This document shows positions 27,048 to 50,330 of a DNA stretch of 51,897 bases, piece by piece. Source of the stretch: a virus (lineage: Duplodnaviria; Caudoviricetes); IMG/VR virus record IMGVR_UViG_3300020156_000459, positions 1 to 51,897 of that record; one strand, written 5' to 3'. The position numbers were made by a program, and so were the translations under genes. Position 1 is the first letter of the stretch. Every line of letters starts with the position of its first letter. Under the pieces are notes generated by a model that saw only the letters and a list, made by a program, of their open reading frames with translations, was not told where the DNA came from and did no database searches.

Positions 27048-27051
27048 GGCG

Positions 27052-28301: not shown

Positions 28302-28316
28302 GGGGAACCTCCAGGA

Positions 28317-28904: not shown

Positions 28905-28928
28905 TCCCGTGGGTGGTGGGATGCCGCG

Positions 28929-29035: not shown

Positions 29036-29038
29036 GCG

Positions 29039-29886: not shown

Positions 29887-30011
29887 TTCAATACCCTCGT
29901 TTGGTGGCGTACCGCAGTTGCGGTGCAGCGCGGATAGGCCGGCGCTCCTACGGAGCCTTGGCGCTATCTCGCGGGTGCGGTAGTGGCGGCCCGAAGGCCG
30001 CCACCGCACGA

Positions 30012-30674: not shown

Positions 30675-30740
30675 GACGGCCTCTCTTTGGGATTGGGGAC
30701 CACAGTCCCATTGCTGCGCTGCACGCGTTTTGACGCGCGT

Positions 30741-31481: not shown

Positions 31482-31921
31482 CGGAGGGGTTCCTGTGCAG
31501 GCTGCCAGCGGACGAGCACCCCGGCGAACTCCGTCACGCCGGGGTGGTTGTCGCGCCAGAAGGCGGCCATGTCGTCGAAGTCGTGGAAGCCATCCCAGCG
31601 GGCGAAGATGTCCAGCTCGGTCGCATCGGCCATTTCGATCCAAGTGGGGGCGGTGGCGCTGTACAGGATCAGGCGGGCCGCTTGTGATGGCGACGGCAGC
31701 AACAGCCGGACGCGCTGCACGGCCGTGCAGGTGGGCGAGCCGATCCGGCGGCAGTGCTTGGTCCGCATGGCCGCGTAGAGCTGGATGACCTCGCCCGGCC
31801 GGGCATGGCGCTTGCGCGGGGCGCGGATGGTTTGGCGCTTCATCCCCGGCACCAGCGGCCCCGGCTCCAGGCCGGCGACAACGGGGTCGATGAAACGCTT
31901 CTGAAACGAGTAGGCGACCAT
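31478..31921 (-). CDS. ASCH/PUA-like domain protein
   Basis: YSFQKRF...KRQTIR...PGEVIQLYAAMRTK.C, FARWDGF..F..M..FW. Confidence 0.7.
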   Translation of the reverse strand: MVAYSFQKRFIDPVVAGLEPGPLVPGMKRQTIRAPRKRHARPGEVIQLYAAMRTKHCRRIGSPTCTAVQRVRLLLPSPSQAARLILYSATAPTWIEMADATELDIFARWDGFHDFDDMAAFWRDNHPGVTEFAGVLVRWQPAQEPLR

Positions 31922-31928
31922 GGAGACC

Positions 31929-32222
31929 TCACTGCGGAGCGACCGCGCTTTCCAGCGCGTCGTTGACGGTGGCGACGATGTCGATGTTCGACTCCCCCGC
32001 GGCGCGGGCGGCGGCGATCGCCGCCTCGACCATCACCAGCGGGTTGGTCGGCGTCGGCGCCGGGGTCGGCACGGGCGGGGCGGCGTTGGTTGCCATCAGC
32101 TCGCCGCTCGCTTCGCACAGCATGGCGCGCAGCCGGCGCCGGCCGCGCTCGCCGATGGGGCGCCGCAGCTCCACCGCGGCGTGGGCCAGGCGCAACGCAA
32201 GTTCGAGGTGCGGCGTCGTCAT
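31929..32222 (-). CDS. Hypothetical phage protein (97 aa)
   Basis: Translationally coupled member of the early operon. Confidence 0.55.
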   Translation of the reverse strand: MTTPHLELALRLAHAAVELRRPIGERGRRRLRAMLCEASGELMATNAAPPVPTPAPTPTNPLVMVEAAIAAARAAGESNIDIVATVNDALESAVAPQ

Positions 32223-32947
32223 GCGGCAGCCCTTGACAACGGCGGACGGTTCATGAGCTGCAGCGTGCGGTTCGCCATGCTCACCAGCTCGTCGGCGGTC
32301 CGGATCCGGCCGTCGACCTTGAAGAGGGCGGGTCCGGCGGAGAGCACTTCGTAATCGCGGCTCATCAGCAGCCGGCGGGCCTGGTCAACGACCGAGTGGT
32401 CGAAGCCGGGCGGCGTGATGGCCATGCCGCCTCCGCGCGAGCGTGGATGCGGCGACCAGTCGGTCGTGCATCCGGCGTTGACGATCGAGATGCGCCGCTG
32501 CGGCCCCTTCCGGGCGATCCGGATCAAGCCGTGCTCGGCCAGCACTTGCACCGCCCGACAGACGCTCGACTGGCCGAGCGCGAGGATGCCGGCCATGGCG
32601 CTGTTGGCGGGGCACCGCAGACCGGCCTGTGCCGCCGCCGTCAGCAGTTCCAGCACCCGGCCCTCTATCGGATCGAGGGTGTATGGCGCAGGCGCGGCCG
32701 AAGGTTCGGCCGCTTCCGGCTCGGCCTGGGGAATGATGGTGACGGGAGCGGCGGTAGCGACCTTGGCGGGCGGCGAATCCGCCTGGACCGGCGGCTCTTC
32801 CGGCGCGGCGGGCGCGGGCTGCACCGCCGGGCCCAGCACGCGGGCGACGCGCTGCCACGACAGGCAGAGGCGGACGCAGATCTCCTCGGGCGGCAGCGAC
32901 CGTGCCGCGAGCTGGCGGATGCGGGCGTCGATCTGGCGGTCGCTCAC
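32219..32947 (-). CDS. Winged-helix DNA-binding protein (242 aa)
   Basis: CPANSAMAGILALGQSSVCRAVQVLAEHGLIRI wHTH; additional N-terminal HTH-like segment. Confidence 0.65.
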   Translation of the reverse strand: MSDRQIDARIRQLAARSLPPEEICVRLCLSWQRVARVLGPAVQPAPAAPEEPPVQADSPPAKVATAAPVTIIPQAEPEAAEPSAAPAPYTLDPIEGRVLELLTAAAQAGLRCPANSAMAGILALGQSSVCRAVQVLAEHGLIRIARKGPQRRISIVNAGCTTDWSPHPRSRGGGMAITPPGFDHSVVDQARRLLMSRDYEVLSAGPALFKVDGRIRTADELVSMANRTLQLMNRPPLSRAAA

Positions 32948-33195
32948 GATGCGTCCTCCTGGGGCTGGACGGCGCCGCGCAAGATGGCGGCGATGCTGGG
33001 AAGGCCGGGGGCGAGCGGGCGCTCAAGGCGGGGCACGGACAGGCCGCGCGCCGCATTCAGCGTCCGCACGCGGCCGGCGTCGATGAGGAAGGCGACCTCC
33101 GCCTCCTGGTGGCCGGGCAGGCCGGCCACCAGGATGACGAGAATGCCGGAACCGCCGATCGGCTCGACGGTGAGGGTCGGCGCGGCGGCGGTCAT
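32944..33195 (-). CDS. Hypothetical phage protein (83 aa)
   Basis: Coupled start/stop overlaps on both sides. Confidence 0.55.
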   Translation of the reverse strand: MTAAAPTLTVEPIGGSGILVILVAGLPGHQEAEVAFLIDAGRVRTLNAARGLSVPRLERPLAPGLPSIAAILRGAVQPQEDAS

Positions 33196-33533
33196 GCGTT
33201 GCCCACCGTGCGGCGGGTGACCATGCTCGTCCGGCCACCGGCCATGCCCTTGGGCAGCGGCGTGCCGTTCTCGACCGCGAGGCGCGTCGACGCCACCAGT
33301 TGCTGGGCCTTCGCCAGCATCGCCTCGATGTTGTCGAACGCCATGGAGCGGTTGGCCGCCGCCGTGGTGGCCGCGCCCACAAAGGCCGCCAGGATGGCGC
33401 CCAGGGCGTCGGCGCTGCCGACCTTCGTCTCGGCCTCGCCCAGGGCGTTCACGAAGAAGGTGATGGCCGGACCGAGGTCCAGCTCGCGCGACATTTCGGC
33501 GTAGCGCTTGAGTATTCCGAAGTCTTCGGCCAT
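33192..33533 (-). CDS. Hypothetical phage protein (113 aa, MAEDFGIL...)
   Basis: GGAG RBS; coupled to neighbours. Confidence 0.55.
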   Translation of the reverse strand: MAEDFGILKRYAEMSRELDLGPAITFFVNALGEAETKVGSADALGAILAAFVGAATTAAANRSMAFDNIEAMLAKAQQLVASTRLAVENGTPLPKGMAGGRTSMVTRRTVGNA

Positions 33534-33811
33534 CACGCGATCTCCATCTGCTGGCGGGGGACGAGGGCGAGGATGGCGGCGGCGAGGTCCGCGACCGTCA
33601 CGTCGGCGTATTGGGCACTGCCGTTGGTGAGCAGCAGGGCGGCGCGAACGCCGAAGGCGTCCTCGATGTCGGTGAGCAGCTGCGCGAACTCGATCGCCTT
33701 GCCGCCCAGGTCGCCGCGCAGGGTGGCGGTGGAGACGACGCGCGCCTCCTCGACCTGGAAGGCGTCGGCGATCAGCGGGCGCAGGCCGTGCAGGATCTCG
33801 CCCAGGGTCAT
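33533..33811 (-). CDS. Acyl-carrier-protein-like protein lacking the phosphopantetheine serine (92 aa)
   Basis: LIADAFQVEEARV...TLRGDLGGKAIEFAQLLTDIEDAFGV...TVADL aligns by eye to ACP, with DLGADSL replaced by DLGGKAI. Confidence 0.65.
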   Translation of the reverse strand: MTLGEILHGLRPLIADAFQVEEARVVSTATLRGDLGGKAIEFAQLLTDIEDAFGVRAALLLTNGSAQYADVTVADLAAAILALVPRQQMEIA

Positions 33812-34293
33812 GCGGCGGACCTTTCCTGGCTGGGGGTGGCGTGGTGCCGGGCAAGCCATTCGGCGTGCAGGGCGGCGTTGGTGGCTGGCTCGCCCTTCCA
33901 GTGGAGCCAGACGCCGGGCCGCCAGAGGCCGGGGTGGTCGATGTCCAGCCGGCCGGCGCCGTCCAGCGCGTAGTCGGCGTCGATCGGCACGTCGGCCGCG
34001 TCCGTCTCCACGTAGGGCCAGCCGAGCCGGGCGGCGGGAACCGGGGTTCCCGGCGGGATCCGCCGGGCGACCCGTTCGGCCAGCGAGAACGCGCTGTCAT
34101 CCCGGAAGACGATCAGGTCGACGTCCCACACGGCGTGCAGCGCGTCCTCCAGCGCGTCGAGGTCCGCCTTCTCCAACTCCAGGGCATGCAAGGTGGCGGT
34201 GACCGGGATGGACCGGCCGCCGAACTGGCGGTGCAGGCGCTGGGCGACGGCGCGGCGGATATGCGCTTCGATGATGGGCAAGAGGTCAGCCAT
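33808..34293 (-). CDS. Hypothetical protein with degenerate ACP-like N-terminus (161 aa)
   Basis: ATLHALELEKADLDALEDALHAVWDVDL...DSAFSLAERV echoes ACP helices II-IV. Confidence 0.5.
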   Translation of the reverse strand: MADLLPIIEAHIRRAVAQRLHRQFGGRSIPVTATLHALELEKADLDALEDALHAVWDVDLIVFRDDSAFSLAERVARRIPPGTPVPAARLGWPYVETDAADVPIDADYALDGAGRLDIDHPGLWRPGVWLHWKGEPATNAALHAEWLARHHATPSQERSAA

Positions 34294-34633
34294 GGGCCGC
34301 CTCCTCGGGATGGGCGGTGGGCGCATGCCGCCGGTCCCACGCCTGTGCGGCGGCGACGGCGAGCGCGGCGATGTTGATCAGGCGGTGGCGGAAATCGGGC
34401 TGGGCGTTGGCGGTGCAGTCGACGAGCCGATCGACCTGGGCGTAGAGGAAGCTGTACCAGTCCGCCGGGATGTGGGCGTCGTCGTGGGAGGTGCCCCCCC
34501 ACTGGAGGTCCTGGCGCCAGCGTTCGCTGCCGACCTCCGACAGGACGTCGGCCAGCGCGTCGCCGTGCGGCCCGTCGTAGGCGTCCGGGTAGTGGACCAG
34601 CTCGGCGATCACCGGGAGAGCGGAGACGTCCAT
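34286..34633 (-). CDS. Hypothetical phage protein (115 aa)
   Basis: ERWRQDLQWG..HDD, LINIAALAVAAAQ (MazG-like helical pattern, tentative). Confidence 0.6.
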   Translation of the reverse strand: MDVSALPVIAELVHYPDAYDGPHGDALADVLSEVGSERWRQDLQWGGTSHDDAHIPADWYSFLYAQVDRLVDCTANAQPDFRHRLINIAALAVAAAQAWDRRHAPTAHPEEAAHG

Positions 34634-34636
34634 CGC

Positions 34637-34900
34637 TCAGCCCTCCATCCCGAGGGCGACCTTGTACAGGTCGAGCAGCGACTCCTGCTCCTGCCGGTCG
34701 CTCTGGTCCATCTTCCGCAGCTTGATGATCTGCCGGATGATCTTGACGTCGAAGCCCTGGCCCTTGGCCTCGGCCATGATGTCCCGGATGTCGTCGGCGA
34801 GGCCCTTCTTCTCCTCCTCCAGGCGCTCCACGCGCTCGATGATGCTGCGGAGCTGGGCGCCGGCGATGCCCTGGACGTCGTTGACGGTGGTGTCAGCCAT
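34637..34900 (-). CDS. gapR: GapR/DUF2312 family nucleoid-associated protein
   Basis: QLRSIIERVERLEEEKK..ADDIRDIMAEAKGQGFDVKIIRQIIKLRKMD...EQESLLDLYKVALGM. Confidence 0.92.
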   Translation of the reverse strand: MADTTVNDVQGIAGAQLRSIIERVERLEEEKKGLADDIRDIMAEAKGQGFDVKIIRQIIKLRKMDQSDRQEQESLLDLYKVALGMEG

Positions 34901-34908
34901 CTCGTACC

Positions 34909-35529
34909 TCACAGCTTCGCGAGGTCGAGGGAGATGGCCCGTTCCTGGCCCTCCGGGGTGTCGCGCTCGTAGAAGCGGACGTAGCTCTTGGAGCCGGTGG
35001 AGACGATGCCGTCGGCGATGGCCTTCATGGCCCGGTGCCAGCGTTCGTCGTCGATGGCGATGCGGCGCAACGCCAGGACGGCGCCGGTGCTGACGTTGCC
35101 CTCCTTGTCCGTCTTGAAGGCGCTTTGAACGAGAAGCTTCAGCTCCGGGCGGGCCTCGGCCGACCAGTCGGCGACGCACTCGCCCACCAGCTTCTCGGCG
35201 ACCTGGAGGCGCTCGTCGAAGGCCAGACGGTCGGCGACTTGCACCCGGACTTCGCGGAGGCCGTCGAAGCTGCGCAGGGTCAGGTTGCCCTTCTTGCCGC
35301 CCATGGCGGTGTCGTACTCGGCCGCCGACAGCTCCACGAAGGCGGCGATCTCCGCCATGGTATCGGCCTTGAACGTCGCCATGGTCTCGCGCAGGCCCTT
35401 GGCGCGCTGGATGGCGCGGTTGACCAGGTCGGTGCGCAGCTTGTCGATGGGTTTGACCAAGCTGGAGGGCCAGCGGGCGCCCTTGGCGTCCGTCCAATCC
35501 TGCTCGGCCGTTTGGGTGTCGGTTTCCAT
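34909..35529 (-). CDS. DUF3164 family protein of Mu-like phages
   Basis: DAKG...VKPIDKLR, GGKKGNLTLRSFDG, FDERLQVA, DERWHRAMKAIAD, SKSYVRFYER. Confidence 0.88.
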   Translation of the reverse strand: METDTQTAEQDWTDAKGARWPSSLVKPIDKLRTDLVNRAIQRAKGLRETMATFKADTMAEIAAFVELSAAEYDTAMGGKKGNLTLRSFDGLREVRVQVADRLAFDERLQVAEKLVGECVADWSAEARPELKLLVQSAFKTDKEGNVSTGAVLALRRIAIDDERWHRAMKAIADGIVSTGSKSYVRFYERDTPEGQERAISLDLAKL

Positions 35530-35555
35530 GGGGTGCTTACCTCCTGGGGGATGGA

Positions 35556-35903
35556 TTACGGGGCGCGTCTGGACGCCAGCGACAGGACGGCGCCGGCGAG
35601 CATGGACAGTTGCAGGGTGACCGGGATGCGCGGCTGCGCGCCGCCGACGATCTGGCCGGCGAGGCTGATGGCGTCGGACAGCGACACCGGCGGCGTGACG
35701 ATGCACAGGCCAAGCGCGGTGTCGGGCAGCACCTTCAGCCGGTGGCGATGGCCGGTGTCGTCGATCAGGGTCAGGACGATGCCGTCGCTGGCGTTGACCA
35801 GCGTCTGCACCTCGCCGCGCAGGCTCAGGCCGTCGCCCAGCGGCACCTCGACGCGCGAGCCGGGGCGGATCTCCGGGCGGACGGCTGCGGCGGGAACGCT
35901 CAT
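35556..35903 (-). CDS. Hypothetical phage protein (115 aa)
   Basis: ATGA coupling; natural composition. Confidence 0.55.
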   Translation of the reverse strand: MSVPAAAVRPEIRPGSRVEVPLGDGLSLRGEVQTLVNASDGIVLTLIDDTGHRHRLKVLPDTALGLCIVTPPVSLSDAISLAGQIVGGAQPRIPVTLQLSMLAGAVLSLASRRAP

Positions 35904-36412
35904 GCCGCGTCTCCCCCGTCGCCGTCCTGGCGCGGCCACCAGCCCAGCCGATCGAGCAGGCGGGAGACGCGCCCCTTGGCGTCCTGCCGGCGCATCTCCT
36001 TCCGACGCGCGTGGTAGGCGGCGAAGTCGGACACGCCGGGCGGCAGTGCCCGCGGCACCTGGGGCACCTGGGGCTCCGCCGGGAAGCGGATGGCCATGGC
36101 GGCCTGCATGTGCTCCACCTGCGCCACCTCGCCGGCGATGCGGACCAGATCCTCGGCCAGGATCATCAGCTCGCTCACGTACAGGGGGCGGTAGGGGTCG
36201 GCGTCGGCGCGGCTGCGCAGCATGCGGGCCTTGGCTTCGATCCGGACGGCATAGGTCAGGTCGGCGGCTTCGGCCTGGGCGGCGACGGTGTCCAGCCGGT
36301 CGGCCAGGGTGCGCGTCTGGTCGGGCGCCTGCTGCGCGGGGCGGACGGTCAGGCCGTTGATCAGCTGCGCCACCACCGTGATGGCGTCGGCGATGGGGGT
36401 TGCGATGTTCAC
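35900..36412 (-). CDS. Hypothetical phage protein (170 aa)
   Basis: GTGA coupling to the upstream gene, GAGG RBS. Confidence 0.55.
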   Translation of the reverse strand: MNIATPIADAITVVAQLINGLTVRPAQQAPDQTRTLADRLDTVAAQAEAADLTYAVRIEAKARMLRSRADADPYRPLYVSELMILAEDLVRIAGEVAQVEHMQAAMAIRFPAEPQVPQVPRALPPGVSDFAAYHARRKEMRRQDAKGRVSRLLDRLGWWPRQDGDGGDAA

Positions 36413-36780
36413 GGGGCACCTCGTTCGGCGGGAGGGGCGGTGCGGTGGGGACAGGACGGGCAGGACGAGCGCAGCAGGCGGGCCAGCGGCGCGTGGGGGC
36501 GGAACGGTTGATCCTGTTCGGCGCGGCAGCGGTTGGCGTCGATCTCGCCCAGCACCGGGCAGGACAGCGGCGCGCCGAGGGTCTGGATGACGGCGGCCTC
36601 GATCTTGGCGGTGCCGGCGGCGTAGCTGGCCGACAGCACCGCCGACACGGCGGGCTTGCCGTAGCCGATCCGGGCGGCGGCCTGGGCCAGCGACGTGGCG
36701 TCGGCCTCGGCGGCGAGGCGCAGGACCCAGGGCGGCGGATCGCCCCAGGCGGCGGCGGCCTTGGCGACGAAGGGCGTCAT
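36409..36780 (-). CDS. HTH transcriptional regulator of Mu-like phages (123 aa)
   Basis: AWGDPPPWV..LA, SLAQAAARIGYGKPAVSAVL HTH, CPVLGEI...C...CPSCPH. Confidence 0.75.
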   Translation of the reverse strand: MTPFVAKAAAAWGDPPPWVLRLAAEADATSLAQAAARIGYGKPAVSAVLSASYAAGTAKIEAAVIQTLGAPLSCPVLGEIDANRCRAEQDQPFRPHAPLARLLRSSCPSCPHRTAPPAERGAP

Positions 36781-37373
36781 GCGGCCTCCATCGCGGCGGC
36801 AACCGCGTCGCTCGGGCGCCAGACCACGTCCCACAGGTTGGGGTCGTACAGGGCCCCGTCGCGCAGCGGCATCGGCGGTTCCGGCCCGGTGTTCTTGCCC
36901 CGCGCGATGCGGTAGCGGTAGAGGCGGGCGCCGGGGTCGGCCGCTTCCAGATAGCCGGCGCGCGCCAGGGCGGCGATGTAGGTCTTGGTCGTGTTGATGT
37001 TGACTCGCGCCAGGCCGGCCAGCTCCTCCGACGTGAAGCCTCCGCGCAACGGGCGCATGGCCGACCACAGCCGTTCGGTGGTCGTCGGGTGTGGATCGAG
37101 CTTGCCGCCACGGAAGCGAGGGGCGCGGCGGCCGAGATCACGCGCCAGCGTGTACACCGACGGCAGCAGTTTTCCCCGATGGCGTGGCCGCTCGGATGTG
37201 ATGATGCCGTTGCCCATCAACAGCTTGAGGAACGCCTTGACCTGCCGCTCCGGCACGGCGGCGCCGGCGCGCAGCTCGTCGAAGCCGAAGGTGCGCAGCC
37301 GCCGCGCCTCGCGCCACAGCAGGGCGTGATCGACGAAGCGCATCCGCCGTTGACGCTCGTCGGGGCGGATCAT
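36777..37373 (-). CDS. Tandem winged-helix protein following MuB (198 aa)
   Basis: LW..MR.L..FT..ELA, YIAALARAGYL, NTGP.PP, LYDPN. Confidence 0.75.
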   Translation of the reverse strand: MIRPDERQRRMRFVDHALLWREARRLRTFGFDELRAGAAVPERQVKAFLKLLMGNGIITSERPRHRGKLLPSVYTLARDLGRRAPRFRGGKLDPHPTTTERLWSAMRPLRGGFTSEELAGLARVNINTTKTYIAALARAGYLEAADPGARLYRYRIARGKNTGPEPPMPLRDGALYDPNLWDVVWRPSDAVAAAMEAA

Positions 37374-38137
37374 GCGAAGCGCCTCACCGCAGGAGCCGCG
37401 CCGGTGTTGATCCGCTGGCCGGCGTAGTCGGCCAGCGACACGCTGCGCAGCCCCTCGCCCTTGGCGAAGGTGGCGACGTTGACCAGGTTCATCGATACGC
37501 GGCGCGTCGACCCGTAGGTCTGGCCGATGAGATGTTCCAGCAGATCGTCGGCGACGGTGATGTCCGGGCAGTACAGCTTGGCCAGCTCGCGCGCGTCGTC
37601 GCCGTCGCAGGGCTGGGCGGCGACGAAGTCGAACACGCGGCTGTGGAAGCGCTCGTACCGCTGGAGCTTCTGCGGCAGCCCCTCCTCGCCGATCAGGATG
37701 ATGGAGGCGGTGCCGGGCGCGGCCATGTCGTGGAAGGCGCGGACCTTGTCGATCATCTCCTTCTTGGCCAGGAAGTCGCCCTCGTCGATGACCAGGGGGC
37801 GGCGCGAGGTCTCCAGTTCCTCGGCGATCTTCTCCGCCATCTCGTTGTTCGTGGCGTGCGTGGGGAGCGCCAGACCCATGGCGTCGACGATGGCGCGCAG
37901 CATGGCGCGCGGGGTCCAGTAGTCGTTGGCCTCGACGTAGTAGGCCATGTGCTCGCTGGCGGCGATCCAGGCGGCGGCGCGGCTCTTGCCGTCGCCGCTG
38001 CGGCCATGGAAGACACCGAAGCCGGAGACGTCGGAGGAGCGCGTCTTGAGCCCGATGACCAGCTCTTCCAGCAGGGTCAGGTTGCGCAGCGGGGCCCAAC
38101 GGCTGGCGGTCTTGCGGGGGGCGGCCGATTTCTGCAT
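37370..38137 (-). CDS. MuB-like AAA+ transposition ATPase
   Basis: GRSGDGKS Walker A, LVIDEGD Walker B, IILIGEE, ERFHSRV; downstream of the transposase. Confidence 0.92.
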   Translation of the reverse strand: MQKSAAPRKTASRWAPLRNLTLLEELVIGLKTRSSDVSGFGVFHGRSGDGKSRAAAWIAASEHMAYYVEANDYWTPRAMLRAIVDAMGLALPTHATNNEMAEKIAEELETSRRPLVIDEGDFLAKKEMIDKVRAFHDMAAPGTASIILIGEEGLPQKLQRYERFHSRVFDFVAAQPCDGDDARELAKLYCPDITVADDLLEHLIGQTYGSTRRVSMNLVNVATFAKGEGLRSVSLADYAGQRINTGAAPAVRRFA

Positions 38138-38216
38138 GGTGGGGGTCCTTCGATCAGTGCTGTTTTCCGTGCGGTCCGCGGCGTCCCATCTGGCCATGGG
38201 CGCCGCTGGCCGGATC

Positions 38217-40391
38217 TCATTCGACGGGACGGGCGAAGCGGGCCTTGCGCTCCTGGTCGCGGCGGCGGGCCTGGTACCAGGCCGACGTGCGGTTCGACGC
38301 CAGCCAGTCCAGATCGTCCTCCGACACCTCCTCGCCGGCCTCGATGCGCGCCTCGATCGCCTGGGCGCGGCGCCACCAGCGGTCCTCCGGCTTCTCGGCG
38401 GCCTGGGCCGGGGCGGCGAGGCGGCGGGCGACGTCGGCCTGCCGGACCGTGTCCGCCTCGGTGCGCGGCGCCGCGACGGCGGGCTTCGACGCGGTGATCG
38501 CGCGCTGGGCGGCCTCCAGGCCGGCGGAGGGCGGCGGCAGGGACGAGCGCGGCAGCGCGGAAACCGTGGCCGCGGGCCTGCCGATCAGCGCGTCGGCGAG
38601 CTGGTGCGGCTTGAACCCCTTGCCGGCGGCGCGGATGGCCGCCTTCTGATCGGCGATCAACTGCTGTTGCAGCGCCTTGGCCTGGGCCGACAGCTCGGCC
38701 CGCGACAGGCCGGCGCGTTCCGGGTTCTGGGCGATGCAGAGGAATTGGAACGGATCGGGGCGGTACACGAAGACCCGGTCCATCCGCTCCGGATCCAGTC
38801 GGACCTCCAGGCGGTCGCCGGTGCCGACGTAGGGGATCAGCTCCGGCGCCCAGAAGTCGGCGTTCTCGACCCGGATTCCCTTTTTGCCCACGGTGCGGGT
38901 GCCGTCGCCGTCCGCGCAGGGCATCAGCAGCAGGTCGAGTTGGCGTTCGTCGACGACGCGCCACTCGGATCCTGCGTGCTCCTCCGCCACGGCGGCCGGG
39001 GTGCGGTCGCCCAGGCCGGCGTGCGGGCTGGTGTGATAGCGGTTCTCGACCCACGCATCGGCCAGCATCTGCAGCTCGGCCGCCGGCAAGGCCGCCTCGA
39101 ACACCTCTTCGTCCTTCTGGCCCAGGCGGGCGGCGAAGGTCTGGCGCGAGCGGATCTCCTGACGCTTGGCCACGTTGTGGCCGGTGTAGCCGGGCAGCAG
39201 CGGCATCAGCCCGTGCTGAACCGTGCCGATCGCGCGCTCGACGTGCGGCTTCTGCTCGGGCGAGTACGGTGTGCAGACGGGGTGCCGTATGGCGTCGCCA
39301 ACCAGCGCGAAGAAGCGTTGCGTCTCGCGGGCCAGGAAGTCGGAGCCGTTGTCCGTCTTGATCGCCTCGGGCATGCCCCAGGCGAGGATGGCCCGGCGGA
39401 TCAGCAGCAGCACGGCCGAGGCGCGCGGCACCTTGGTGACCAGGATCAGCATGCGGCGCGTGAAGACGTCGACCACGACGTAAATCGTGTGCCGCCCATC
39501 GGTCAGCATCAGGTCGGTCGGGCTGGCGTCGATCTCCCACAGCTCGTTGGGCTTGGTGATCGCCTCCGAATAGGAGCCGACGGCAACGAGGCTGCGGTTC
39601 TTCCAGGCGTCGGGGTTGGTCAGCCGCAAGTGGAGCTGCTTGTACTCCTCGCGCCATTGGTTGAGGCGGCGGCGGATCCAGCCGGCGGTGGGCATCTTCG
39701 CCTGACCGCCGCGCAGCAGCTCGAACCCCTCGCCGAAGCGCTTGACCAGGGCCGCCCGGTAGGCGTCGGCGTTCCAGTCGGGCTTGGCCAGCGCCACGGC
39801 GACCAGATAGCCCATGATGTCCTCGCGCGCCTGATCCAGCGACCCGGCACCCTTGCGGTTGCCGTAGGCGCCGGCCAGCCGGGCGGCCTCGCCGGACTCC
39901 ACGGCCTCGACCCAGCGGCGAAGGGACGATGGGGACACCGTGGGCTTGGCGGCACGGGCCCAATCCGGCACGTCCACCTCGCGGGCGTTGTAGAAGCCGG
40001 TGAACTTGTGCACCAGCCGGTCGCGGGACAGGCCGCCGGCCTGCCGCTCGAAGGCGAGGAAGGCGTTGGCGATGGTGGCCTTGGCGTCCAGCCGGGCCTT
40101 GCCGGCCTTGGTCAGCACCACCGGGGCGGCGGCGGTGCCTTTCAGCGTGGCCGCGAGCTTGGGCGGCGCCGGCGGGGTGGCCTGCTCGGCGGCGCGGCGG
40201 CCCAGTTCGATGCGGGCTTCCGGCGGAAGGGCTGTGACGTGGTACTCGGTGCCGCCGCCGCGGCCCTGGCGGGGGCGAGCGGGCGACCAGCGTTCCTGCT
40301 GGGCCCGCATGTTGATGCCGCGCTTGGTGGACGGCAGGCCGGGGAGCGCGAAAAAGGCCAGTTCAGAAGCCGTGTACCAGCTTTCATCCAT
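38217..40391 (-). CDS. MuA-like DDE transposase (724 aa)
   Basis: N-terminal WYTASELA..LPGLP...GGGTEYH DNA-binding domain; WEIDASPTD, KTDNGSDF, KPHVERAIGT catalytic D-D-E. Confidence 0.96.
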   Translation of the reverse strand: MDESWYTASELAFFALPGLPSTKRGINMRAQQERWSPARPRQGRGGGTEYHVTALPPEARIELGRRAAEQATPPAPPKLAATLKGTAAAPVVLTKAGKARLDAKATIANAFLAFERQAGGLSRDRLVHKFTGFYNAREVDVPDWARAAKPTVSPSSLRRWVEAVESGEAARLAGAYGNRKGAGSLDQAREDIMGYLVAVALAKPDWNADAYRAALVKRFGEGFELLRGGQAKMPTAGWIRRRLNQWREEYKQLHLRLTNPDAWKNRSLVAVGSYSEAITKPNELWEIDASPTDLMLTDGRHTIYVVVDVFTRRMLILVTKVPRASAVLLLIRRAILAWGMPEAIKTDNGSDFLARETQRFFALVGDAIRHPVCTPYSPEQKPHVERAIGTVQHGLMPLLPGYTGHNVAKRQEIRSRQTFAARLGQKDEEVFEAALPAAELQMLADAWVENRYHTSPHAGLGDRTPAAVAEEHAGSEWRVVDERQLDLLLMPCADGDGTRTVGKKGIRVENADFWAPELIPYVGTGDRLEVRLDPERMDRVFVYRPDPFQFLCIAQNPERAGLSRAELSAQAKALQQQLIADQKAAIRAAGKGFKPHQLADALIGRPAATVSALPRSSLPPPSAGLEAAQRAITASKPAVAAPRTEADTVRQADVARRLAAPAQAAEKPEDRWWRRAQAIEARIEAGEEVSEDDLDWLASNRTSAWYQARRRDQERKARFARPVE

Positions 40392-40878
40392 GATCGGCCT
40401 CCCGGATGCGGGCCTTCAGCTGGCTCCGGGCGGCCATGTAGCGGGCGACCATCCCATCGCCGGCGTCGAGCATGCGGGCGGCTTCCCTGGCGTCGACGCG
40501 GCCGTCATTGCCCATGGCGGCGGCGAACTCCGCGAAAAGCCGACCTACCTGCTCACCAACGGCGGCCAGATCCTGGGGCAGGTTGCCAGCGTCGGCGTCG
40601 GTGAGGGGGCGGAACAGCAGGTAGCCCTGCTCGGCGGCCAGGAACTCGGTCACCACCATGCAGCCGGAGGCCGCCTGTAGGGCCCGCACGTCCGGGACCT
40701 TGAAATGCGCATTGCGGTTCGCGGAGTCCGGATCCGTGATGCGCTGGATCGTGGATTGCGACAGGCCAGTTAGTTCGGCCGCGCGATCCTGGCCCCGGCA
40801 CCTCTCGACCAGTTCGGCGTAGGACGCTTTGAGGGTGCCGGGTTGCCGGGGCTTATACGCGCCTGGGTATTGGGCCAT
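40384..40878 (-). CDS. CII-like/HTH phage regulatory protein (164 aa)
   Basis: AAELTGLSQSTIQR HTH; C-terminal AMGNDGRVDAREA. Confidence 0.65.
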   Translation of the reverse strand: MAQYPGAYKPRQPGTLKASYAELVERCRGQDRAAELTGLSQSTIQRITDPDSANRNAHFKVPDVRALQAASGCMVVTEFLAAEQGYLLFRPLTDADAGNLPQDLAAVGEQVGRLFAEFAAAMGNDGRVDAREAARMLDAGDGMVARYMAARSQLKARIREADHG

Positions 40879-41139
40879 GGTTTTACCCGTTGTGCGAGTA
40901 GCGGTTGCGATGCGACGGTCAAGGCGCGAGGAAATGGAGGATTAAATGCGGCTTGATCGAGCAAACTTCGGGCGGGAGGCGGTCAAGCACCTACTGGTGG
41001 GACTCGCCGCGCTGGGCGCGGCGATGTCCTCCGGAGGATCGGCGCGGGTGGCGCTGGTTGATGAGGCGGGCCGCCGGTTCGGCTATGCCGCGGCAGTGTG
41101 GAAGGTGCGGGGTCTGTACCCGGCGCGGGACGGCGAGGG

Positions 41140-41427
41140 TCATGCCGCAGCTCTTTCCTCGGCGCCGCCGCGGGTGCGGCAAAGCCGGACACCGTCTGGC
41201 CGGTAACGCTCCGGAAACAGGTCGTGCACGGCGACTTCCAGCCGGTCGGCCAGCGCCCGCTCGATCCTTTCTGACGGTAGGAACAGGGCCTGCGACACGG
41301 CCTGGGCGCACACTTCCAGCTCGGCCGCGATCTGGCGCAGGCTGGAGCCCTTCCGCTTCAGGGAGGCGACCACCCAATCTCTGCGGTCCTGTGGGTCCGA
41401 GGGTACTCCGGATCTACGCATCGTCAT
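41140..41427 (-). CDS. ner: Ner-like transcriptional regulator
   Basis: WVVASLKRKGSSLRQIA...IERALADRL....DLFPERY; divergent from the repressor. Confidence 0.88.
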   Translation of the reverse strand: MTMRRSGVPSDPQDRRDWVVASLKRKGSSLRQIAAELEVCAQAVSQALFLPSERIERALADRLEVAVHDLFPERYRPDGVRLCRTRGGAEERAAA

Positions 41428-41563
41428 CCCTACGACTATCGATATGTCTACCGTCGTATCACGAGCATGCTTCGCATGCAACGAGCATTTTCGATGTGGG
41501 AATCCTTCCCGGTTCGGCCCACGCTTGAAGGGCGCGCGCATGTGCAAAGGCGACGGGATAACA

Positions 41564-42124
41564 ATGACTTACGACAACCGGGAAGGGCCGGACGAAGTGG
41601 GAAGGGCTCTTCCCACTTACGAGGCGGAACTGGGAACACGGATTTCCCTCGTCATCGACCTGTACGATCTTAAGGCCGACGCGGCACGGGTCGCGGATGT
41701 TACGCCCGAGATGTTGAACCGGTACGTGCGCGGACAGCACAAAATACCCTTCACCAACGCCGCTCGGCTGGCTTCAGCCAAAGGTGTCAGTCTTGACTGG
41801 CTGTGGAGCGGAGAAGGACCAATGCTTCTGCGTGATCGCGTGCACGACTCGCCGCCAGCGGCGGTCGAGTCATTCGACCTTGCGTTGATGGGCAATCTCG
41901 TGTCCGGCCTGATGGCATTCCTGCAAAGGGAGAGCCTGGATCTAGATCCGGAATACATTGGTCGGGCGGTGACCCTGCTTTACATGCTGATGGAGCGCGA
42001 GCGCCGCGACACCACCCCGGAGGATCGGCCGGATCTGTGGGTGGAGGGGCACCCCGTGGACATCGCAAACGATAAAATCCTGGCGGAAACCGTACGCCTC
42101 GCACTCGGGCGGTTGCGTAGGTAG
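41564..42124 (+). CDS. Prophage repressor (XRE/CI-like HTH); start uncertain
   Basis: AARVADVTPEMLNRYVRG, GVSLDWLWSGEGPM; divergent from ner; no peptidase S24 domain visible. Confidence 0.8.
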   Translation: MTYDNREGPDEVGRALPTYEAELGTRISLVIDLYDLKADAARVADVTPEMLNRYVRGQHKIPFTNAARLASAKGVSLDWLWSGEGPMLLRDRVHDSPPAAVESFDLALMGNLVSGLMAFLQRESLDLDPEYIGRAVTLLYMLMERERRDTTPEDRPDLWVEGHPVDIANDKILAETVRLALGRLRR

Positions 42125-42614
42125 GACTATCAGGTGTAGCTTCATGGCTCGCCGCAACCCTGAGTACGTGAGTATGCAGGCCGCGGTGGGGGCCAGGGCT
42201 ACCAACCCCGGTCGCCCAGGGTGCGCACACACCCCGGAACGAGAGAACGCAACGACACGCGCTAGTCGCGTCTCGCCCCCCAGCCGCCACGCGGCAAGGG
42301 GAAGTGTAAGGCCGGGAGTGTGCATGAAAAGCTTAGATGTCGAAGCGTGCTTCCCTTCAAAAACCGTGATCCTCGCCGAATTTGAGGCGATACTCATCCA
42401 CGCTCGCCCACGGCGTGTGGTCGCATGCCCCTTGTGGAATGGAGAGTTGAGAGCGTGTCAAAAAGACGATATTTCAACTCGGCCAGAACAGAGGGGCAGC
42501 CTTGCTCCTCATCATGATCAATGTGGTCGGTGAGCGCTGAATTTTCCGTGCGTGTGTAGACGATTGTAGACGGTAAAGCGACAACGCAAAGAGACACATC
42601 GGAGGAACGCAGCA

Positions 42615-42851
42615 ATGAAGCCGGAAGACCGTCCGACATCCATGGTTTCTTTTCCGCTAACAATAGTTGGCGTGCTATTTCTTGCCGGAGGCGGGATGAT
42701 GCTAACCGGCACTCCGCCGAACTTCATCGGCTCGATCGGCGCGGTGGGGATCGGGCTAGCCCTGATCGGCTTGGCCGGCATCAACACGCGCTTGGCCGAG
42801 GTGATCCACGAGTTGCGCCTCATCCGCGCCGCCGCAGAGAGGGTGCCATGA
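42615..42851 (+). CDS. Small two-TM membrane protein (moron)
   Basis: GGAGG RBS; two hydrophobic helices. Confidence 0.7.
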   Translation: MKPEDRPTSMVSFPLTIVGVLFLAGGGMMLTGTPPNFIGSIGAVGIGLALIGLAGINTRLAEVIHELRLIRAAAERVP

Positions 42852-43372
42852 AAGCCGGTCACCTCGCCCTGTCTGCTTTCTTCCTTCTCGGATCAGCCGG
42901 GCCTTGCGCGGCCGATTGGCAGTTCACCCGATGGGGAATGACGGTCGAGGAAGCTGTTCGTGCAGCTGGGGCCGCAGGGGTGAATGTGGATGCGGGCGGC
43001 ACTGTGCCTTCCGGCGACGGCAAGCTTACGAAGCTCCCCATTCCATACTACAAGGTGGGCAGTATATTTTTTGATATATCTCTGGTGTTCGAGTCGCCGG
43101 ATAATAGGCTTGTCATGGTGCTGATGACGGTGAGTCAGCGCGGCGATTTTGACAGGCAGAAGCTCGACGCCCTGCGTATGGATTTGCTTCAGGCGTTCGG
43201 CTCTCCTTTTGCTGTGAATCAGCAAGACGGGTTTGACCTCGCGATGTGGCGCGACGTGACCCGCAACAACCGGATATTCGCGAAAATCCGCGTCGATCCG
43301 CCGGGCAGAACGGGCGGCCTGCGCGACACCTCCATCATGTACACGCCGCTCGTTCCCGTCAGCGCCTTCTGA
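42848..43372 (+). CDS. Exported protein (moron, 174 aa)
   Basis: Signal-peptide-like N-terminus, then WQFTRWGMT..E; lower GC; ATGA coupling. Confidence 0.7.
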   Translation: MKAGHLALSAFFLLGSAGPCAADWQFTRWGMTVEEAVRAAGAAGVNVDAGGTVPSGDGKLTKLPIPYYKVGSIFFDISLVFESPDNRLVMVLMTVSQRGDFDRQKLDALRMDLLQAFGSPFAVNQQDGFDLAMWRDVTRNNRIFAKIRVDPPGRTGGLRDTSIMYTPLVPVSAF

Positions 43373-43379
43373 CCGGCCA

Positions 43380-43554
43380 CCGTCAAACCATCCGTCCGTC
43401 AGCGTACAATGCGGCGATGTCCGTATGGTTTGACAGAACGGAGTGGACGCGTCTCGAAAACCTAGGCATCACAACGCCTGCACGTCCCACTCGATCCCCC
43501 AAAATCCCACCGTATCCCGGCCCCCTATCCCGTCAAACCATTGGTCTCTCTACA
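43380..43554. repeat. Prophage repressor-side end (Mu L-end equivalent) with three end boxes
   Basis: CCGTCAAACCAT at 43380-43391 and 43530-43541, inverted ATGGTTTGACAG at 43425-43436; terminal CTACA. Confidence 0.88.
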
Positions 43555-43559
43555 CCGGT
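43555..43559. repeat. 5-bp target site duplication CCGGT (right copy)
   Basis: Matches 1535-1539. Confidence 0.95.
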
Positions 43560-44292
43560 GCGTCGATCGCCTCGGGCGTCAGGCGGAAGGTGCCGAAATG
43601 CATGGCTACGCTGGTGCGGGCACCCAGGTCCTCGTGCGCCGCCACCGCCTCCTCCGGGTTCATGTGCTGCGGCGCCATGAACCAGCGCGGCTCGTAGGCG
43701 CCGATGGGCAGCAGCGCCACGTCGATGCGCGGGAAGCGGGCGCCGATCTCCTTGAAATGCGGGCCGTAGCCGGTGTCGCCCGCGAAGTACAGCGTGCCGG
43801 CATCCGTCTCCACCACGAAGCCGCCCCACAGCGTCGTGTTGCGCCGGAAGGGCGCGCGCGCCGACCAGTGCTGCGCCGGCACGAAGGTGACGCGGCAGCC
43901 GGCCGGTCCCCGCGTGCTCTGCCACCAGTCCAGTTCCTCGACGTGCGCGAAGCCGTCGCCGTTCAGCAGCGGCCCGTTGCCCAGCCCCACCACCGCCCGC
44001 GGCCCGAAGCGCCGGGCCAGCGCCGCCAGCGACGGCCGGTCCAGGTGGTCGAAGTGCCCGTGGCTGACCAGCACGAGGTTCGGGTCCGGCAGCCGTTCCA
44101 GCGGCACGCCCGGCGGGCGGGCCCGCTTCGGCCCCAGCCGGCCGAACGGACCGGCCCGTTCGGAGAACACCGGGTCGGTGAGCAGGCGAAGGCCCGCCGC
44201 CTGCACCAGGAAGGTGGCGTGGCCGACATGGGTGACCGCCAGCGCGCCCGGTGCCGGGGGTGCCGGGACCGGCTGCGGCGGGTCCTCGACGC
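43555..44292 (-). pseudogene. Middle fragment of an MBL-fold metallo-hydrolase gene (NAPE-PLD/RomA-like), cut on both sides by insertions
   Basis: Open frame VEDPP...VTHVGHATFLVQ...LTDPVFSERA...SHGHFDHLD...PAQHWSAR...YFAGDTGY...PIGAYEP...MHFGTF; lacks both N- and C-termini. Confidence 0.92.
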
Positions 44293-44339
44293 TGTAGCGC
44301 GCCGAATGGTTTGAATTGGCGCGCTGGATGGTTTGACAG
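44293..44339 (+). repeat. Terminus of the second element with two end boxes
   Basis: TGTAGCGCGCCGAATGGTTTGAATTGGCGCGCTGGATGGTTTGACAG versus prophage TGTAGCGCGCCGAATGGTTTGACGGGCTGCGCCGGATGGTTTGACGG; same 22-bp box spacing. Confidence 0.93.
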
Positions 44340-44390
44340 CGCTGACACCCCGTTTCAGGCTTACCGGGAATTGAAGAAGCCTTGGCGCTT

Positions 44391-47984: not shown

Positions 47985-48905
47985 TTACAGGTACGGGGAC
48001 ACCACCAGTTCGGCGGTGCCGGCCCACTCGTTGGGCGCCGCGACCGTCTGTTCGTTCGGCGCCGTGCCCACCGTGACCAGCTTCATGTTGTTCTTGATGA
48101 GACGCAGCCCGTCGCCTTCCAACTCGTCCGGCACCACGAGGATGTTGGGGGTAAGGCCCAGCTTCTTGCCGTTCTCGCCCCGGATGCTCTTGATCGCCAC
48201 GCGGGCCGCCTCGTAGTTGTCGTGCGTCAGCGGCGCCTTGCTCGCATAGGCGAGCTGCCAGAGCCCGAAGCCGGCGTTGGCGCGCGCGCGGACGCCGTAG
48301 AAATACTCGTCTTTCCAGAAGACGTTGTCGTCCGTGGCGGCGTCCTGCCTCTGGAACTCGTACGGCAGCCGCTCCTGAAACACGAGGGGTTTGACCGGCT
48401 GGCCGGCGTCCATCAGGAACCACGCCGGCCCGGCCCCATCCTGATAGTTGCTGTAGGACGTAGGCTGACAGTCGATATCCACGACATGATCAGTGGAGAA
48501 GAACGGCTTGCCGTCGTAGCACAGCTCGGTAAACCCGGCTGCCAGAAGCTCGTACACCAACTGGTCGGGGTGCTTCGCCGCGTCGGCGCCCATCTTCTCG
48601 TACAGCGGGCCGAAGACGCCGTACTGGTCATCTTCGATGGCCGTACGGGGAACGCCAATGGTCACCTCAAACGTGCGGTTCTTGATGGTGTAGCCCGCGA
48701 CTTCAAGGTTATGGATGATACGCGAGCCGATCCATTCCCGAAGCTGCGGAAGTTCCTTCAACCAACCATAAGCTTCTTCGCCCGTCGCGCTGTTTGTCTT
48801 CATGGCGATTTTCAGGTACGTGCTTTCGACGCCCTTGAAGCCCTTGTTGAAGGAGGTCTTGAACCCGGCGAACATGCCGGCGAGGTTGGGGGCGGTGATG
48901 AGCAT
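47985..48905 (-). CDS. Second Mu-like major capsid protein (306 aa)
   Basis: YGWL...LREWIGSR, IEDDQYG, CYDGKPFFSTDH, GFGLWQLA, PNILVVP; intact, diverged paralogue of 18087-18980. Confidence 0.95.
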   Translation of the reverse strand: MLITAPNLAGMFAGFKTSFNKGFKGVESTYLKIAMKTNSATGEEAYGWLKELPQLREWIGSRIIHNLEVAGYTIKNRTFEVTIGVPRTAIEDDQYGVFGPLYEKMGADAAKHPDQLVYELLAAGFTELCYDGKPFFSTDHVVDIDCQPTSYSNYQDGAGPAWFLMDAGQPVKPLVFQERLPYEFQRQDAATDDNVFWKDEYFYGVRARANAGFGLWQLAYASKAPLTHDNYEAARVAIKSIRGENGKKLGLTPNILVVPDELEGDGLRLIKNNMKLVTVGTAPNEQTVAAPNEWAGTAELVVSPYL

Positions 48906-48914
48906 GGCTGTCCC

Positions 48915-49880
48915 TTACAGGTTCTTGGCGTATTCGGCCGGATCGTGTCCGAGGGCCGCGCAGATGGCCTTCTGTTCGGCGGTAAGGCGCCCATCGGCGC
49001 CCGAGTTCGGATCGGGCGGCCGGCCCCCCGGCACCACCTCACGGGCGAGGTTGCCGAACACGGGCGGAGCGCTGGCGGCGAACTGGTCGAAGCTGGCCGG
49101 GTTGGATCGGCAGAGGACGAGCCCCCACTCCCGCTGGGCCGGTGTCATCTTGCCGGCGCGGATCGCGGCGTCGACCTTGGCCGTCGCCTGCTCCTCCGAA
49201 AGGTTGGTGCGCATGCTGGCGAGCTGCGTCGCGGCTTCATCATAGAGATGGCGCGGCACGTAGAGGGACGGGTCGGGCACGGCGGCGGCCGTCGCCTTCT
49301 CGCTGGCGTCCTTGACCAGCTTCGTGACGGCCTCGATCACGGCCGCTTCGTCGCTGGTGTCGGGCAGGTTCAACAGCGCGCACAAGCGCTTGATGGTTTC
49401 GGGCGACATGGGCGCTCCCATACTGGCAAGGGCCTTGAGTTCGAAGGCCGGGTTGTTGACCAGGGCGGCCCGAAGAATGCAGGTGACCGCGCCTTCCTTG
49501 GTGTGCCGGAAGACGGGGGACACGTAGCGGTACTCCCTGGCCGCGATCTTGGCAGCGGCGCGCTGCGTCCACTCCACGCGGCCCCAGATGCCATCAGGGC
49601 GGGCCTCAAAGGCCGCGATCCAGCCTGCGGCGGGCGCCTGTCCACCGTGCGGGGCGGCGAGGTCAACGGCGTGGTCGTAGTCGATCACCGGCTTGACCGG
49701 ACCGGCCATCGTCAGGGACGCGGCGATCACCTGTTGCGCGGCGGCCATGCCGGGAAGGGACCAGGGGCCGCGACCGTCGCGGCCCTTGATGGTGCCGTAG
49801 GGCAGAAGCTGCACCCAATCCGGCGGTGCGGCGGGGAGTTCGGAAGAGAAGGAGGCGAGAGCGATCAGGGGATCAGTCAT
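48915..49880 (-). CDS. Second Mu-like protease/scaffold (321 aa)
   Basis: WVQLLPYG...DGRGPW, IDYDH, APAAGWI, VEWT, EYRYVSPVF, ALVNNPA, LTAEQKAICAALG. Confidence 0.95.
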   Translation of the reverse strand: MTDPLIALASFSSELPAAPPDWVQLLPYGTIKGRDGRGPWSLPGMAAAQQVIAASLTMAGPVKPVIDYDHAVDLAAPHGGQAPAAGWIAAFEARPDGIWGRVEWTQRAAAKIAAREYRYVSPVFRHTKEGAVTCILRAALVNNPAFELKALASMGAPMSPETIKRLCALLNLPDTSDEAAVIEAVTKLVKDASEKATAAAVPDPSLYVPRHLYDEAATQLASMRTNLSEEQATAKVDAAIRAGKMTPAQREWGLVLCRSNPASFDQFAASAPPVFGNLAREVVPGGRPPDPNSGADGRLTAEQKAICAALGHDPAEYAKNL

Positions 49881-50247
49881 TGCTAATATCCCCATAGATC
49901 TCGCGGCGCACTTTCCTTACGTGGCGTTCAGTACATCCCACGGCCTGTGCGACGACACGCGTTTTCGCGCCTTCCATCGCCAATATCAGTTCCTTCTTGG
50001 AACCAGCCGGCGGCGGCAACACCGGGATGTCAATCTGTTCTCCAGGATACATATTTCCTATTATTTTGGCGTGCTCCAGTCCGACAATCTTTGCGATCTT
50101 GGATCGTTCCGAAGGGCTCGCGGCAAATTTCCTCTTAGTGCCGCCCCAAGAAAGGCCAAGTTTTATTGCCGTTTCGTATGATGTCGCCCGCGCAATACCC
50201 GCCAAGAAGGGAGGAAGCCTCTTGATCCTGTCATCAGTGATCGCCAT
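49873..50247 (-). CDS. Mor/C-family activator homologue (124 aa; start could be further upstream)
   Basis: Shares WGGTKRK, YPGEQ.D.P and GCTERHVRKV with 29039-29413. Confidence 0.85.
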   Translation of the reverse strand: MAITDDRIKRLPPFLAGIARATSYETAIKLGLSWGGTKRKFAASPSERSKIAKIVGLEHAKIIGNMYPGEQIDIPVLPPPAGSKKELILAMEGAKTRVVAQAVGCTERHVRKVRREIYGDISND

Positions 50248-50272
50248 AGCCTTGACGTAGCCCCCCGGCATC

Positions 50273-50330
50273 GGAATTGGTTCCGACACTAGGGGGACGG
50301 AGAAGCGTCTATCGACGCGGAACTAGTTCC
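50273..50330 (-). promoter_or_regulatory. Putative late promoter of the second element
   Basis: GACGCGGAACTAGTTCC (50314-50330) with TAGTGT 27 nt downstream of the core; second dyad GGAATTGGTTCC at 50273-50284. Confidence 0.65.

Follow-up and report, generated by a model that had tools for sequence, protein, structure and literature searches.

A compact Mu-type element with its own capsid and scaffold genes next to a Mu-like prophage: a putative phage satellite

The phage satellites that we know of move by means of an integrase and use replicons that are their own or hijacked. P4, Staphylococcus aureus pathogenicity islands (SaPI) and phage-inducible chromosomal island-like elements (PLE) remodel the capsid of the helper phage via Sid, CpmB, TcaP or Rcm, and capsid-forming phage-inducible chromosomal islands (cf-PICIs) integrate via an integrase. 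Elements that rely on a partner for transposition are also known: Ds of the Ds/Ac pair and miniature inverted-repeat transposable elements (MITEs) have ends matching those of an autonomous partner and no transposase, and laboratory mini-Mu and mini-D3112 derivatives have Mu ends without (some) phage functions, receive MuA and MuB in trans and are packaged in helper heads. Engineered mini-Mus are mentioned in PMC8705779, and according to a preprint (10.1101/2022.09.08.507074), cf-PICIs encode all of their small-capsid and packaging proteins and steal only tails. Here, we describe an 8,507-bp Mu-type element, called element 2 hereafter, that lies next to a complete 42-kb Mu-like prophage in the IMG/VR provirus record IMGVR_UViG_3300020156_000459. 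The window that was analysed is this whole record of 51,897 bases; it contains two gpT-type capsid genes, one in the prophage and one in element 2.

Like cf-PICIs, element 2 has its own capsid protein and a helper would supply the rest, but it has no terminase, portal, connector or integrase, and its mobility is of the Mu transposition type. With P4, SaPI and PLE it shares its small size and its position near a putative helper, and a head too small for the helper genome would be a common aim; unlike them, it brings its own capsid and scaffold. Its ends match those of a partner and a transposase is missing, as in Ds/Ac and MITEs, but the partner is a phage and virion genes have been kept. In contrast to laboratory mini-Mus, it is natural, it carries its own regulators, protease/scaffold, capsid and tape-measure-like genes, and its head proteins are only 41-50% like those of the putative helper. 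Full-text searches of a literature collection without most subscription journals returned no description of a Mu-type satellite or of a natural capsid-carrying mini-Mu, and the compact family described here seems to be unpublished.

We consider it probable (about 0.65) that element 2 is a non-autonomous Mu-type element, one of many compact "capsid-carrying mini-Mus", and a satellite of the neighbouring phage.

Boundaries and gene content of element 2

The DNA of the window recurs in an Azospirillum sp. metagenome-assembled genome (MAG), on a contig of 100.7 kb. The locus taken from this contig (L004) is the reverse complement of the window from position 37988 onward, has no mismatches in the 13,910 shared bases and extends the sequence 7 kb past the window end (window position x equals 58906 − L004 position). 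Element 2 occupies L004 positions 6107-14613, i.e. from window position 44293 to 902 bp past the window end, and is flanked by the 5-bp target duplication GCGTC (L004 6102-6106 and 14614-14618); the ClpP-like, metallophosphoesterase and HlyD/AcrB genes to its left on L004 are host genes. The prophage is flanked by a duplication of its own, CCGGT (window 1535-1539 and 43555-43559).

The ends of the two elements are alike. The first 22 nt of the right ends, which for the prophage starts at window position 1540, are identical (TGTAGCGCGCCGAATGGTTTGA) and are followed by a second …GGATGGTTTGAC site. Both left ends read TGT(G/A)GAGAGACCAATGGTTTGAC…, with more sites ~125 and 150 nt inward, and a repeat search on L004 identified a 70-nt direct repeat, 90% identical, at positions 6107 and 15352. 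The end motif GAGACCAATGGTTTGAC occurs three times in the window, against 0.05 expected, with one copy, near window 1546, in inverted orientation. When long repeats, direct or inverted, were sought across the entire window, only GC-rich noise resulted; it was the narrower search of L004 from which the ends emerged. Hence, element 2 and the prophage have 5'-TG termini and repeated ..ATGGTTTGA.. sites in common, and each displays what characterizes a Mu-type element: TG termini, several predicted transposase-binding-type repeats that are inverted at the two ends, and a 5-bp target duplication. The TG termini together with two perfect 5-bp duplications constitute a signature of Mu-type transposition, and the capsid and protease/scaffold pair belongs to a discrete Mu-type transposable unit.

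The ORFs of element 2 (listed in Table 1) are all open and closely packed. Pfam and PHROG scans of these ORFs did not detect any family of transposase A, MuB, terminase, portal, connector or head-completion, tail-tube or lysis proteins. None of its ORFs matched an rve, Mu-transposase or MuB family, and tblastn and jackhmmer searches of L004 retrieved only the A and B genes of the neighbour. Because transposase, packaging and virion-completion genes are missing, element 2 is non-autonomous for transposition, packaging and virion completion; the absence of essential virion and packaging genes is also the general mark of a satellite. By gene content it is neither a cf-PICI nor a P4-like satellite: the same scans found neither the cf-PICI set (integrase, small terminase, portal and connectors) nor the P4-like set (integrase, primase-helicase and Sid/Psu/Delta/Epsilon).

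The 483-aa tape-measure-like protein shows no sequence similarity to the 2035-aa tape measure of the neighbour. Among the low-GC ORFs, the 196-aa product is 27% like an ORF located between the tail-tube and tape-measure genes of a related phage record, G001 (see below), and the 220-aa product resembles Ntn/proteasome-beta proteins by atlas fold, which we take as a lead only. The 174-aa early protein (window 51029-51553) has antirepressor-like features, likewise an atlas lead. A protein of this kind would make sense if the element derepresses a helper, as P4 does with P2.

Relatives of element 2 and their head genes

The capsid protein of element 2 matches PF10124 (Mu-like_gpT) over its full length (residues 9-306, E 4.9e-113), and in phmmer searches it matches those of JBD30 (8rkc, E 3.7e-70) and Mu (9jod, E 4.2e-66). 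Residues 28-324 of the protease/scaffold match positions 1-330 of the 330 of PF10123 (Mu-like_Pro; E 2.7e-71). The initial annotation had pointed out that, compared with the neighbour, the capsid protein has an 11-residue insertion, the scaffold is shorter and a decoration gene is missing, and each of these differences holds. BLASTP aligns the two capsid proteins with 153 identities in 307 positions (50%), and in the neighbour's protein 6 and 5 residues are missing opposite LVTVGT and QTVAA. The protease/scaffold of element 2 has 326 aa (or 321) versus 379 aa; 145 of 351 positions are identical (41%) and 59 are gap positions. Read directly, this alignment shows a ~25-aa "GLPE..A....LK" unit, located between the protease and scaffold parts, that is present in three copies in the neighbour and one in element 2. 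The pairwise alignment keeps the DYDHA and SP(V/A)F stretches, without pinning down the catalytic residues independently. Only 9 bases separate the protease and capsid genes of element 2, with no decoration gene between them, whereas the neighbour has a 137-aa ORF at this position (18994-19407) that matches phrog_1731 "virion structural protein" (E 6.4e-41) and, by its sequence and location, may encode a cement or decoration protein. These three features are not due to chance. The protease/scaffold of the putative helper (window 19411-20550), with an estimated 379 aa, is itself among the longest 11 of 186 in a first survey.

An AlphaFold model of the element 2 capsid protein, based on a 121-row alignment, has a predicted local distance difference test score (pLDDT) of 87.5 and a predicted template modelling (TM) score of 0.84, and it matches the JBD30 procapsid protein (8rkx_L, TM 0.83) and the phage Mu capsid protein (9jod_A, TM 0.77). 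Helix 260-270 of the model is followed by a beta-hairpin made of residues 274-279 and 286-291, in a block with pLDDT >90. According to PMC11445458, the JBD30 head is T=7 laevo, its decoration trimers are dispensable and, in the peripheral domain, bind the extended loop and helix α5 at the three-fold axes, and Cys217 is placed in the axial domain. Since the hairpin aligns after the residue matching Cys217, topology would place it in the axial domain. The insertion is thus a confident hairpin in the model, which would be part of the axial domain, away from the three-fold decoration contacts and from the contacts between capsomers.

In the alignment, the Mu loop is 8 residues shorter than that of element 2, and the C-terminal part of JBD30 is ~10 shorter. 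The 121 rows, made up of the query, its 119 best homologues from the database and the capsid protein of the neighbour, have loops of 15-16 residues (32 rows), 19 residues (15 rows), 21-25 residues (42 rows) or 27-29 residues (32 rows).

We then surveyed 321 loci (323 less 2 duplicates), i.e. all those with a readable capsid gene from five locus scans, and assigned them to classes with an automated jackhmmer screen. Full loci, with a portal or TerL gene upstream of the capsid gene, numbered 160; compact loci, in which A/B lie at most 8 kb upstream and a portal is lacking, 49; portal-less loci, with neither portal nor A/B, 36; and 76 loci had too little flanking DNA (short context). In the first, smaller screen of 247 loci, these numbers were 133, 12, 39 and 63, respectively.

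The closest capsid protein with a readable context (62%) is that of Roseomonas genomospecies 6 (L005). It is encoded by a low-GC element of ~8.2 kb that has a perfect inverted repeat of 20 nt close to each end. The element contains c, a MuA-like gene (704 aa), MuB, GemA, protease, capsid and a single small ORF, after which host genes begin; its target duplication is less clear, with ACGC common to both sides and an uncertain fifth base. Family scans showed that four more loci (L030, L158, L160 and L226) follow the plan regulator-A-B-…-Mor-I-(decoration)-T, followed by non-phage genes, and the complete chromosome of Phyllobacterium sp. 628 (L255) has the order c-A-B-GemA-I-T. Tistlia consotensis (L253) has I-T-x and then an ORF with a tape-measure domain. 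The gene order in Maritimibacter (L260) is T-gpG-I: here, capsid, gpG-like (PF05069) and protease genes succeed each other (9941-12531), instead of protease before capsid. A homologue of the tape-measure-like gene directly follows the capsid gene in four compact loci (L004, L268, L300 and L256), and in 24 full phages it is located >3 kb from the capsid gene.

In the capsid tree, the window protein joins L005 and then L012 (each with a Shimodaira–Hasegawa-like approximate likelihood ratio test (SH-aLRT) value of 98), within a clade of six (SH-aLRT 94) that contains four compact loci, two portal-less loci and no full phage. Compact elements require ~7-15 changes on this tree and therefore arose several times. 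Nine clusters in a collection of 5.8 billion proteins are at least 59% identical to the window capsid. A metagenome scan for close relatives gave only three loci, none of them in the clade of ≥59% identity, and a second scan of viral contigs added none. As a separate observation, at least nine near-identical gpT loci (L210-L218) are spread over several contigs of one MAG, which suggests an actively transposing Mu-like phage or element.

The three head features are enriched in compact elements in raw counts, which are taken over related rows and include a last scan aimed at long-loop proteins. Loops of at least 23 residues occur in 13 of 48 compact and 2 of 105 full loci (Fisher 5e-6), and loops of at least 27 residues in 8 compact, 2 portal-less, 2 short-context and 0 of 105 full loci. 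A decoration-type gene lies within 1.5 kb of the capsid gene in 8/49 compact and 145/160 full loci (p 6e-23). The median length of the protease/scaffold is 328 aa in compact (n=22) and 356.5 aa in full loci (n=146; Mann-Whitney U test (MWU), 1.2e-4), and proteins of ≤326 aa account for 10/22 and 9/146, respectively. The first survey had suggested no relation between hairpin length and context (MWU p 0.52), which the enlarged survey reversed in raw counts. A phylogenetic control left only 6 independent contrasts on supported branches, of which ~1-2 agree in direction, and the sign test was not significant. The three features mark one or a few lineages of compact elements.

The initial annotation proposed that a head of lower T number, fitting the satellite and excluding the helper genome, results from the insertion combined with the shorter scaffold and the absence of a cement protein. 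We regard this explanation as possible but doubtful. The element measures 8.5 kb and the prophage 42 kb, and by our own T^1.5 scaling of capacity, a T=3 or T=4 head would hold ~12 or ~18 kb. The distribution of hairpins of at least 27 residues, the scaffold medians and the scarcity of decoration genes in compact loci are in line with it, as are the shorter loops in the solved T=7 heads of this capsid family (JBD30 and Mu) and, ambiguously, a 9,000-letter sequencing unitig with ~3 times the depth of the prophage (see below). Against it, the hairpin would lie in the axial domain, off the three-fold contacts of the JBD30 decoration protein, 29 of 48 compact elements have a short loop, and in known systems head size is set by scaffolds or external proteins, not by capsid loops. 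With these points and the outcome of the phylogenetic control, the hairpin is unsupported as a determinant of head size. A small head for element 2 is nevertheless plausible. In any case, the two elements provide a natural pair of related HK97-fold capsid proteins for studying what determines head size; they differ in the hairpin (short and long), in the scaffold (long and short) and in the presence of a decoration protein.

Putative dependence of element 2 on the neighbouring phage

The "satellite" of the initial annotation is well supported, as element 2 is a bounded, non-autonomous Mu-type unit that has ends like those of the neighbour and is of a kind recurring in many genomes. That a specific helper would mobilise and package the element is suggested, from sequence alone, by the matching ends and by the same pairing in G001. 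This record of 42,768 bp is a relative of the putative helper (TerL 76%, portal 67%, capsid 61%, A 61% and B 73%), and it also has a protease gene (56%) and a capsid gene (64-66%) of the element 2 kind, oriented as in the window and located on the corresponding side of the early region. In the genomes with the compact elements L005 and L226 (the latter from Desulfovibrio), a second gpT gene lies beside a Mu-type portal gene; one further genome contains Mu-type portals alone, and two MAGs lack them. The end motif of L005 occurs in its genome only at the L005 element and not at the co-resident prophage, so that matched ends are not general for autonomous relatives.

Alternatively, element 2 could be a dead deletion derivative of a once complete Mu-like prophage, with head genes that have no present function, which we judge unlikely. 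The lack of a transposase is compatible with this, as are the short tape-measure-like ORF, which stops at a drop in GC content, the low-GC ORFs that fill the right part, and the G001 capsid gene, which is broken by an insertion sequence. However, both ends and the target duplication of element 2 are intact, its tightly packed ORFs are all open, and the Mor-I-T junction has been kept in elements whose capsids share only 41-62% identity. Moreover, its ends are ~90-100% like those of the neighbour and its head proteins only 41-50%, which a recent deletion of the neighbour would not be expected to produce.

Selection on the genes of element 2 argues in the same direction. A fourth sequencing run (2024), from another study, contains a ~96% variant of the element. 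Among the listed differences, beyond which there are 9 more, 21 of 35 changed codons are synonymous versus ~26% expected (p 4e-5). The tape-measure-like gene has 15 synonymous and 7 non-synonymous changes (15/22; p 4e-5 versus 26% expected), the capsid gene 3 and 2, and the protease gene 3 and 5 plus an in-frame 3-nt deletion. This synonymous excess indicates purifying selection on the genes of the element, above all on the tape-measure-like gene.

Contigs of two metatranscriptome runs from other studies are at least 99% identical to element 2 over the tape-measure-like, capsid/protease and early genes, and also to the prophage; DNA carry-over is possible, and these contigs are no proof of transcription. 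In DNA run X1, possibly the source sample, element 2 is contained in one 9,000-letter unitig (window 44064-51897) with flanks of 229 and 264 letters and a mean word depth of 469, versus 141-168 for unitigs over the left 12 kb of the prophage and 124 for a 122-letter linking unitig. This excess of ~3 times may mean that the element is present in more genomes than the prophage is, that some strains lack the prophage, or that there are extra copies; if element 2 is a satellite with a small head, these would be extra copies of about one small headful. All four runs consist of contigs, so depth cannot rank genes, and no meaning attaches to stretches that they leave uncovered. A joint of 44031 to 44411 had only 22 letters on one side and was set aside.

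If element 2 is a satellite, MuA and MuB of the helper would act on its matching ends, leading to its replication and insertion. The packaging site of phage Mu lies within the left end, and the 70 conserved nt of the left end may therefore serve the helper terminase as a packaging site. Late in infection, the Mor-type activator of the element would drive I-T and the tape-measure-like gene, and its shell and scaffold would assemble on the portal of the helper and then join helper tails; use of the helper's portal and terminase is suggested by their absence from element 2. A different (smaller) head may accompany the hairpin, the short scaffold and the missing decoration gene. More speculatively, the tandem, co-oriented layout might allow a helper-sized headful starting at the left end of the element to take along c-ner-A-B of the helper. 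A fuller version would have a helper-dependent transposable satellite with mimicked ends and borrowed transposase, terminase, portal and tails, which makes its own small heads and perhaps short tails (by the 483-aa protein), and in which the hairpin, the single-repeat scaffold and the loss of decoration are adaptations; as a whole, this version is rather improbable.

Another explanation, that the capsid, scaffold and short tape measure are an interference module that poisons the neighbour or incoming related phages, to the advantage of the host or the element, while the element itself is not packaged, we consider very unlikely. The structural proteins, related but diverged (41-50%), could co-assemble badly, and the short tape-measure-like protein could misdirect tail assembly; satellites commonly interfere with their helpers. 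On the other hand, PADLOC matched 0 of the 15 element proteins, and the match of the ends, which covers 70 nt on the left, speaks for mobilisation and packaging.

Several observations weigh against our view of element 2 as a satellite and one of many compact elements. The Azospirillum MAG contains a single copy of it. Mu target immunity would disfavour an insertion 738 bp from a related end, given which the spacing between element 2 and the prophage is odd. The tape-measure-like gene and the low-GC ORFs might be remnants of what was once a larger phage. In G001, a Mutator-family transposase gene (PF00872, E 1.6e-122; L111 1546-2933) splits the element-2-like capsid gene after residue ~179; because of this and the little DNA before ner, this copy looks degraded and, as judged from its sequence, appears to be decaying. 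The compact and full classes stem from an automated screen, and family scans backed them up only for L004, L005, L030, L158, L160, L226, L255 and L260, and partly for L253. To these are added the short-looped majority of the compact elements, the eight compact elements that do have a decoration gene and the non-significant phylogenetic control.

If our reading of element 2 as a satellite is correct, a non-autonomous transposon of a transposable phage with its own shell and scaffold would be a new way to parasitise a virus, and would explain many "defective Mu-like prophages" in proteobacterial genomes. As the putative helper and satellite lie side by side and the ends are defined, the system is directly testable.

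Feature coordinates and the neighbouring prophage

The positions of the features in the window are given in Table 1.

Table 1. Features of element 2, the neighbouring prophage and the DNA between them (window coordinates)
Feature	Position	Strand	Basis or remark
Complete Mu-like prophage, 42,015 bp	1540..43554	-	siphovirus-type; PHROG and Pfam scans
Neighbour's capsid gene, 297 aa	18087-18980	-	gpT-type
Host DNA between the elements	43555..44287	-	738 bp counting the GCGTC copy at 44288-44292; MBL-fold hydrolase ORF
Right-hand GCGTC copy, element 2	44288..44292	.	read from the sequence; left copy past window end, L004 6102-6106
Right end, element 2	44293..44345	-	inward: TGTAGCGCGCCGAATGGTTTGA, then a second ..GGATGGTTTGAC site
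Four low-GC ORFs, 138, 196, 145 and 220 aa	44391..46482	-	without Pfam, PHROG or PADLOC family
Tape-measure-like protein, 483 aa	46479..47930	-	PF06791 at residues 114-300; phrog_24
Major capsid protein, gpT family, 306 aa (P0001)	47985..48905	-	PF10124
Beta-hairpin codons (residues 274-291, holding the 11 extra residues)	48033..48086	-	alignment and model
Head protease/scaffold, gpI family, 326 aa	48915..49895	-	PF10123; 321 aa from second ATG at 49880
Mor/C-type late activator	49873..50289	-	phrog_836, E 2.2e-12; 40% identical to neighbour's; overlaps start of protease gene
Two early ORFs, 147 and 174 aa	50589..51553	-	174-aa ORF Bro-N/P22-antirepressor-N-like (atlas features and fold, lead only)
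Cro/CI-type helix-turn-helix protein, 79 aa	51658..51897	+	diverges from the other genes; position of Mu c repressor; points outward

The prophage has genes for c, ner, a CII-like protein, A, B, Mor, endolysin, TerS, TerL, portal, F, protease, the 137-aa protein and capsid, and, after the capsid gene, adaptor, Neck1 and the 2035-aa tape measure. Just upstream of the tape-measure gene, it contains a further copy of the end motif with two mismatches (window 13654-13670). Both Mu-type elements are inserted, co-oriented and 738 bp apart, in or next to one MBL-fold hydrolase gene (window 43550-44206 plus flanks), and the stop codon of this ORF comes from the terminal TGTAG of the prophage. Between the c gene and the left end of the prophage, two plus-strand ORFs (window 42615-43372) encode a membrane-like protein of 78 aa and a signal-peptide-like protein of 174 aa, which belong to no family and are possible lysogeny-expressed cargo.

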